This document shows positions 41,751-41,958 of a DNA stretch of 64,000 bases, in pieces. The translations under genes were made by a program, and so were the position numbers. The notes beneath the pieces were generated by a model. That model ran no database searches. It was given only the letters and a program-made list of their open reading frames with translations, and was not told the DNA's origin. Numbering within the stretch: position 1 is the first letter of the stretch; each line of letters opens with the position of its first letter. Origin of the DNA: Escherichia coli (GTDB lineage Bacteria; Pseudomonadota; Gammaproteobacteria; Enterobacterales; Enterobacteriaceae); the NCBI RefSeq assembly GCF_044324785.1, contig NZ_CP172127.1. One strand, given 5' to 3'.

Positions 41751-41862
41751 TGTATCTTATATTGTGATATCGGTGCTGCTGCTGTTATTTTTTGTTGTAT
41801 TTGTGACGAATGGTTAAGAATAAAACATGAGCTGGTGATTATCAGGACAGGTTGCTTGTATA

Positions 41863-41958
41863 TGAAGATAACAAAGGTGGCATTTATTTTTGCGCTGTCA
41901 GTGTGGAGTGTTGCTGTGATATGTCTTTTATTATTTGTACTGGTTGTTCTGGGATAGC
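41863..41958 (+). CDS. Possible 31-aa hydrophobic small membrane peptide
   Basis: MKITKVAFIFALSVWSVAVICLLLFVLVVLG; not in ORF track; speculative. Confidence 0.2.

Follow-up and report, generated by a model that had tools for sequence, protein, structure and literature searches.

Small hydrophobic peptides encoded within horizontally acquired operons include MgtR, which is 30 aa long and is encoded at the end of the mgtCBR operon of Salmonella, and SafA, a peptide of 65 aa encoded by the safA-ydeO operon of Escherichia coli. Peptides of such a kind can exert control over virulence regulators, over transporters, or over the integrity of the membrane. Type I toxins represent another group of short hydrophobic peptides; according to Fozo et al. 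2010 (PMC2887945), they can be recognized by sequence-related tandem copies and/or a long distance to the flanking genes, and by a small cluster of polar/aromatic residues at the C-terminal end. In the present work, we analyzed two short open reading frames (ORFs), hereinafter referred to as ORF1 and ORF2, located in a window of 64 kb of the E. coli genome (contig NZ_CP172127.1); the window is the whole stretch of DNA that was analyzed, all the coordinates are positions in it, and "+" designates the strand shown. The two ORFs follow the gene for an orphan regulator at the end of a mobile cassette bounded by insertion sequences (ISs), which also harbors a gene for a YadA-like adhesin. We propose, assigning to this proposal roughly an even chance of being correct, that ORF1 and ORF2 code for two small inner-membrane peptides that would be made from the regulator transcript and would play an accessory or regulatory role.

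ORF1 (41740..41817, +) starts with a GTG codon and codes for a peptide of 25 aa (MLNNVSYIVISVLLLLFFVVFVTNG) in the +1 frame relative to the regulator; the start codon precedes the regulator TAA (41748-41750) by 8 nt, so that the two coding sequences overlap by 11 nt. ORF2 (41862..41957, +) starts with an ATG, is in the regulator's frame, and codes for a peptide of 31 aa (MKITKVAFIFALSVWSVAVICLLLFVLVVLG); an in-frame GTG located upstream, at 41835, would give a product of 40 aa. A previous sequence-only reading of this DNA had pointed to two very hydrophobic peptides absent from the list of ORFs, and both of them are present exactly as it quoted them. Its positions, in contrast, needed a correction of 1-2 nt in all three sets: the GTG from which it read the first peptide ("VISV...") is at 41764 instead of 41766 and is internal to ORF1, the second ORF spans 41862-41957, and the inverted repeat that it placed after the two ORFs spans 42040-42061. 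On the opposite strand, three GenBank E. coli records (AJB37470.1 among them) list a hypothetical protein for a frame of 38 aa antisense to ORF2 (41884-42000, -); its product is hydrophilic, and nothing else supports it.

Both peptides are strongly hydrophobic, with a grand average of hydropathy (GRAVY) of 1.96 for ORF1 and 2.34 for ORF2. When the 933 ORFs of 17-60 aa found in all six frames of the window were ranked according to their best 15-residue Kyte-Doolittle window, ORF1 (3.52) and ORF2 (3.41) occupied the first and the second positions, the next value being 2.73. The region from 41751 to 42037 (287 bp, 39% T) was also subjected to dinucleotide-preserving shuffling, and a single frame reaching at least 3.4 was obtained in 20 out of 5000 shuffles and a pair of such frames in none of the 5000. 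Moreover, a T occupies the second codon position in 68% (ORF1) and 65% (ORF2) of the codons, each ORF being considered in its own frame. In windows of 36 nt this fraction reaches up to 92%, with the phase of ORF1 between about 41760 and 41808 and with that of ORF2 from about 41808 to 41950; the phase of the periodicity flips at about 41800-41810, that is, at the frame change. This pattern is a coding signature for transmembrane helices and no compositional accident. It is very likely, in our opinion, that transmembrane helices are encoded, or were recently encoded, by the DNA beneath ORF1 and ORF2.

The sequence-only reading had also envisaged that the two ORFs might be chance frames in AT-rich DNA. 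In principle, open frames that were never coding might look hydrophobic in this region, which is T-rich, given that U-centered codons specify hydrophobic residues, and neither ORF was called by the annotation in RefSeq. This explanation is nevertheless rejected because of the shuffles, the ranking of the small ORFs, and the codon-phase periodicity, the last one being frame-specific and unexplained by composition; we regard it as extremely improbable.

As to the start signals, both ORFs display what is expected from genes for small membrane proteins, i.e., a short ORF, a start codon, a ribosome-binding site, and one predicted transmembrane helix. The GTG of ORF1 (41740) is preceded by a Shine-Dalgarno-like GGGGGA (41729..41734, +), which lies 5 nt upstream, inside the last codons of the regulator; its predicted pairing with the 3' end of the 16S rRNA is -8.6 kcal/mol, and about 3% of the ATG/GTG/TTG triplets of the window reach -7. 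The ATG of ORF2 (41862) pairs at -5.6 kcal/mol through AGGACAGG (41844-41851), a value close to the median of the long ORFs of the window. The range of these long ORFs is comparable to the values of both ORFs, and the background mean is -2.0 kcal/mol. The alternative starts pair poorly (-1.5 kcal/mol for the GTG at 41835 and +0.4 kcal/mol for that at 41764). Furthermore, the GC skew, which is strongly positive (0.25-0.41) in the adhesin and regulator genes, is maintained along ORF1 and ORF2 and falls off after about 41950, and no terminator-like site was found on the + strand between the regulator and ORF2, nor before 42223.

The following scenario can thus be depicted, the sequence being our guide. 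ORF1 and ORF2, with one transmembrane helix each, would lie at the 3' end of the transcription unit that the adhesin and regulator genes form in the IS-bounded cassette. ORF1 would be translated by coupling to the regulator, from the GTG placed 8 nt before the regulator stop codon and behind a strong Shine-Dalgarno sequence. ORF2 would be translated from its own ATG; the lysine-rich end of its product (MKITK) is expected to be cytoplasmic and the 26 hydrophobic residues to cross the membrane. An accessory or regulatory role is proposed because of the analogy with small hydrophobic peptides embedded in horizontally acquired operons: the two peptides might modulate a membrane partner, the neighboring regulator, or the adhesin, rather than kill the cell. 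Most simply, the pair would be counted among the small membrane proteins that annotation tends to overlook, a well-known class. A bolder version, which appears improbable to us, is that ORF1 and/or ORF2 belong to a new family of membrane peptides restricted to E. coli, acting together with the orphan regulator (by tethering it to the membrane or by antagonizing it there, as a minimal anti-regulator whose translation is coupled to that of its target), or represent a new toxin that stabilizes the cassette during its movement between pathogenicity islands.

Several data weigh against two functional peptides. The hydrophobic stretch of ORF1 covers only about 17 residues. Neither ORF is called by the RefSeq annotation pipeline (Prokaryotic Genome Annotation Pipeline, PGAP), and the only calls for ORF2 come from automatic gene finders applied to metagenome contigs. 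A search for ribosome profiling or proteomics of a carrier strain retrieved none. No homologue of the peptides was retrieved outside the cassette in the collections searched, and no family model was matched in Pfam, NCBIfam, PHROGs, or PADLOC (the searches of the two peptides against Pfam and NCBIfam having been run with E <= 1 and E <= 10, respectively). Since no diverged related locus exists in any of the collections searched, the conservation of the frames, on which the two ORFs might have been judged, cannot be used as evidence.

The variation among the copies of the cassette was surveyed in 10 haplotypes, from at least two genomic contexts, the changes being too few for a test. ORF1 (78 bp) shows the substitution N3S and, in one strain, the in-frame loss of a CTG codon. 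ORF2 (96 bp) shows V6A and V28I, with F10L occurring besides in a metagenome protein; each of the three swaps a hydrophobic residue for another hydrophobic one. Five substitutions were counted in the flanking non-coding DNA (124 bp) and five, three of which nonsynonymous, in the regulator gene (456 bp). No nonsense or frameshift change was found in either ORF across the 10 haplotypes, the sole change in length being that of the one codon lost in frame. This intactness carries almost no weight, because the identity is at least 97.5% everywhere, so that selection and youth are inseparable by counts. To the points already made against the two peptides it must be added that the density of substitutions in the ORFs (4 in 174 bp) is indistinguishable from that of the flanking non-coding DNA (5 in 124 bp), that every change in ORF2 is nonsynonymous, and that ISCro1 is inserted at the start of ORF1 in one strain and an IS3-family element just inside ORF2 in another one; at least in those two strains, the ORFs are hence dispensable.

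The frame change between the two ORFs might also be the scar of a mutation. In this case, the two helices would be what is left of one gene for a two-helix membrane protein of about 72 aa, starting from the GTG at 41740; an indel of one base near 41800-41815 would have interrupted it prior to the spread of the cassette, and the remainder would be a pseudogene, possibly still giving the N-terminal fragment of 25 aa. Such an origin would account for two transmembrane signals in different frames at about 50 nt from each other, with the flip of the T periodicity between them. The frame of ORF2 is open from about 41808, ahead of its ATG, with a moderate enrichment of T at position 2, and the segment 41740-41957 spans 218 nt, i.e., one base under a multiple of three. 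The joined sequence could plausibly form a hairpin whose loop (DEWLRIKHELVIIRTGCLYMKITK) is positively charged, and the cassette itself, which has decayed mobile elements around it, is cut short by the IS remnant located 80 bp downstream. Nevertheless, ORF2 possesses its own ATG, an acceptable Shine-Dalgarno pairing, and a canonical lysine-rich N-terminus right before the helix; moreover, the repaired protein (ORF1 joined to ORF2, 75 aa) retrieved nothing from an index of 5.8 billion proteins, plasmids, phages, or GTDB genomes, and it matches no family. We consider the split gene the main rival of the two peptides, possible but rather unlikely. The same stretch might, in turn, derive from a membrane-tethered regulator of 220 aa whose anchor was lost through a nonsense mutation, or which is still produced through occasional readthrough or frameshifting. 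In favor of it, the regulator's frame, which is also that of ORF2, is open from the TAA at 41748 to 41957; the 28 codons in between are free of stops, as occurs in only 11% of the composition-matched shuffles, and the chance of sharing the frame is one in three. This calculation, however, was made post hoc. The databases contain proteins in which the regulator is fused to ORF1 and/or ORF2 (P0023, of 220 aa, P0031, and P0043) by means of homopolymer indels, that is, one-base changes in the G5 run at 41729-41733 and, in P0023, also in the T6 run at 41788-41793; they would be membrane-anchored variants of the regulator, if real. These alleles are rare (1-4 sequences each) and fall in runs that are typical sites of sequencing errors, and the fusion proteins are probably such errors. 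The coding periodicity under ORF1 is in the +1 frame and not in that of the regulator, and the paralogous regulators (about 160 aa) have no anchor, so a lost anchor appears very improbable.

The sequence-only reading had mentioned small membrane toxins and leader peptides as well. The first idea is sound in so far as small membrane peptides are the best-supported interpretation of the ORFs, whereas their toxicity is hypothetical. A type I system would imply that one or both peptides depolarize the membrane and are kept in check by an unrecognized antisense RNA, the whole stabilizing the mobile cassette. With their size (<70 aa) and a single predicted transmembrane helix, the peptides agree with the class of Fozo et al. 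2010 (PMC2887945); the ORFs sit on an IS-bounded module present in multiple copies, and they lack annotation, as type I toxins often do. In addition, an RNA antisense to ORF1 could be transcribed from a sigma-70-like site found on the minus strand (41866 to 41838). This site, however, is one of a set of promoter-like sites around the ORFs that is smaller than expected by chance (2 found vs. 3.4 expected), and no minus-strand terminator was found there; the repeat search revealed no complementary antisense partner near either ORF, Rfam gave no relevant match in the region, and the folding of the RNA is no better than that of shuffled sequences (z = -1.4). The peptides did not match the models of Ibs, Ldr, Hok, TisB, ShoB, Fst, or other toxins. 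The repeat search revealed that ORF1 and ORF2 are unrelated in sequence, so they are not tandem duplicates; ORF1 overlaps the upstream gene, leaving no long intergenic space, and as to the C-terminal end, ORF2 finishes with VVLG, without any polar/aromatic cluster, and ORF1 with TNG, which is weakly polar. In light of this, a type I toxin appears improbable. The hypothesis of a leader peptide or attenuator is not supported, in that no gene follows the ORFs on the same strand, the 80 bp after ORF2 being followed by an IS256-family remnant and a convergent MliC-like gene, and the RNA shows no excess of structure. An anti-sigma factor paired with a sigma factor of the extracytoplasmic function (ECF) type is not supported either: ORF1 adjoins and overlaps the regulator gene but codes for only 25 aa, an anti-sigma domain having about 80 aa, and the regulator has no match to region 2.

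In the DNA that follows ORF2, the inverted repeat is perfect over 10 bp (AGTGACCGTC / GACGGTCACT), with arms at 42040-42049 and 42052-42061 and a loop of 2 nt. It is contained in a 3'-end remnant of an IS256-family (IS1414-like) element of about 63 bp (42038..42100, +), which comprises the last transposase codons and the terminal inverted repeat. In about 1300 E. coli genomes, the segment 42038-42103 has matches of 81-88% identity, which are the 3' ends of transposase genes of the IS256 family. The alignment to IS1414 and to a copy of EDL933 shows that the palindrome belongs to the final codons of the transposase gene (...GDRLDGHF-stop), after which comes the terminal repeat, up to about 42100. 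The remnant thus aligns with this end of IS256-family elements; it differs from them in keeping only the terminal 63 bp or so, the rest of the element being gone. Judging from these alignments, the palindrome is IS debris and did not arise as a terminator of the ORFs. Hence, the repeat noticed by the sequence-only reading is real, but it is no landmark for the two ORFs, since it was inherited from the IS and encodes the C-terminus of the transposase. The IS remnant cuts the cassette off 80 bp after ORF2.

The surroundings of this point are variable. In a second genomic context, a complete IS256-family element is located at 42024-42032 with a target duplication of 9 bp. In various strains and in a Salmonella contig, the insertion sites of distinct IS256-family elements fall within about 10 bp of one point (about 42024-42040; L004 668, L010 3783, L009 3736), beside the older remnant, so that this place looks like an insertion hot spot. 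Inside the remnant, the five bases at 42088-42092 vary according to the strain (TACTG, CTTAA, or GGTAA, intact IS copies having CCTAA), the flanks of the remnant being identical.

The regulator (41295..41750, +; 151 aa) is annotated in RefSeq as a "sigma factor-like helix-turn-helix DNA-binding protein". It has a helix-turn-helix of the sigma-70 region 4 / LuxR type at residues 87-130 and a degenerate N-terminal domain; it matches Pfam Sigma70_r4_2 with 30.9 bits (cutoff 25.7), the match concerning region 4 only, with no match to region 2. The name "LuxR-like", given to it by the sequence-only reading, is then approximately correct: the family given by Pfam is Sigma70_r4_2, and one distant paralogue matches both this family and GerE/LuxR. 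Only near-identical copies of the regulator, from E. coli and Salmonella, were retrieved from the index of 5.8 billion proteins; only near-identical copies resulted, too, from an exhaustive HMMER search of 1.84 billion cluster representatives and from 100,044 GTDB species genomes. The sole distant relative is the paralogue just mentioned, a protein of 160 aa encoded by E. coli IncF plasmids (WP_046201729.1 and relatives), sharing 22% identity over the full length (pairwise E = 5e-10), and a profile of the regulator including this paralogue gained just the paralogue group. The model of the regulator obtained from AlphaFold without an alignment has a mean confidence (predicted local distance difference test, pLDDT) of 37 and is unusable.

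The gene of the plasmid paralogue is located directly downstream of a large surface-protein gene. In E. coli M8 plasmid A (L014 493-5012; also L015 and L016), an ORF for a repeat-rich surface protein of 1128 aa lies before it and a second LuxR/GerE regulator after it; a PapB-like gene and an autotransporter are found in the vicinity. In E. coli, acquired adhesin genes seem to be repeatedly accompanied by degenerate LuxR-type regulators of small size. The adhesin-linked LuxR/GerE regulators of the IncF plasmids share with the regulator studied here the same architecture and the same place directly after a large surface-protein gene; they differ in that a second LuxR-type regulator lies downstream, where the window has the hydrophobic mini-ORFs. 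The possibility that the region of the ORFs is the remnant of such a second regulator was checked and rejected, since 41751-42037, compared in three frames and as DNA, revealed no similarity (best E value of about 0.5, the search space being tiny).

The first gene of the cassette (39983..41233, +) codes for a trimeric autotransporter adhesin, reported in RefSeq as a "YadA-like family protein" (Pfam YadA_anchor, E = 2.6e-16). Close to the N-terminus of its product, a perfect (GCTCAG)n repeat (40107-40152) specifies (AQ)n. The length of the adhesin ranges from 375 to 522 aa among the strains, and the adjoining regulator stays at least 99% identical, which suggests a rapid diversification of the adhesin or a variation in repeat length. 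Between the adhesin stop codon and the regulator start there is a perfect, GC-rich hairpin of 9 bp (TCCCGGGGG-GAGT-CCCCCGGGA, 41256-41283), with a consensus TATAAT at 41278-41283 directly after it and then a GAGG Shine-Dalgarno sequence; together they could act as a terminator or attenuator plus an internal promoter, from which the regulator and the small ORFs would be transcribed. On the other side of the regulator, RefSeq leaves 41751-42106 unannotated, and a convergent gene (42107-42445, -) codes for an MliC-like inhibitor of c-type lysozyme (Pfam E = 3.9e-12).

The order of the block is as follows: 3' fragment of a transketolase gene, transposase remnant, yadA-like gene, regulator, ORF1, ORF2, and IS remnant. 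The segment 41250-42100 is present with 99-100% identity in 183 out of 5426 complete E. coli genomes, on the chromosome in every case, and all the copies of the cassette are at least 97.5% identical to one another. The 183 genomes hold 292 copies in total; some strains harbor several copies, with up to 7 matching places in one genome. The same block was found in at least two contexts. The first one is that of the window, where the surroundings are decayed mobile elements; the second one is an IS-rich island that adjoins iucA (aerobactin) in strain Ch1 (L013, second copy) and a tyrosine integrase in an O111:H8 strain (L012). In these islands (L013 and L012; also L010 and L009), the duplicated cassette takes along a fragment of 186 nt of the neighboring transketolase gene; this, together with the presence of up to 7 places per genome, implies that it moves as a unit between pathogenicity islands. 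The carriers, among which are strain 104, BEN2908, and Ch1, are chiefly avian and human extraintestinal E. coli, and the aerobactin genes adjoin the cassette in some of them. The "tkt1 island" of avian pathogenic E. coli (APEC) O1 (PMC3349570) was considered as a candidate for this locus and rejected, being a different island; the paper on the BEN2908 genome does not mention the locus.

If translated, ORF1 and ORF2 would add two small membrane proteins to those missed by annotation, both embedded in a mobile adhesin-regulator cassette. The practical value of the analysis is modest and consists of corrected coordinates, a coding signal that is not a compositional artefact, an explanation for the inverted repeat, and the recognition of the cassette as a near-clonal orphan. 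In comparison with the type I toxins of E. coli (Ibs, ShoB, Ldr, ZorO, TisB, and Hok), ORF1 and ORF2 differ in having no family match, no related tandem copies, no long spacers, and no detectable antisense gene; they resemble them in being shorter than 70 aa, with one dominant transmembrane helix, unannotated, and carried by accessory DNA. In comparison with peptides of the MgtR/SafA type, they show no sequence similarity and have no known partner, and their cassette, unlike the operons of those peptides, is an orphan restricted to E. coli without diverged copies. The likeness concerns the organization: as in the case of MgtR and SafA, ORF1 and ORF2 would code for single-helix peptides (25-31 aa), share the strand of a virulence or regulator operon, are placed at its 3' end or close to it, have no promoter of their own, and were missed by the annotation.
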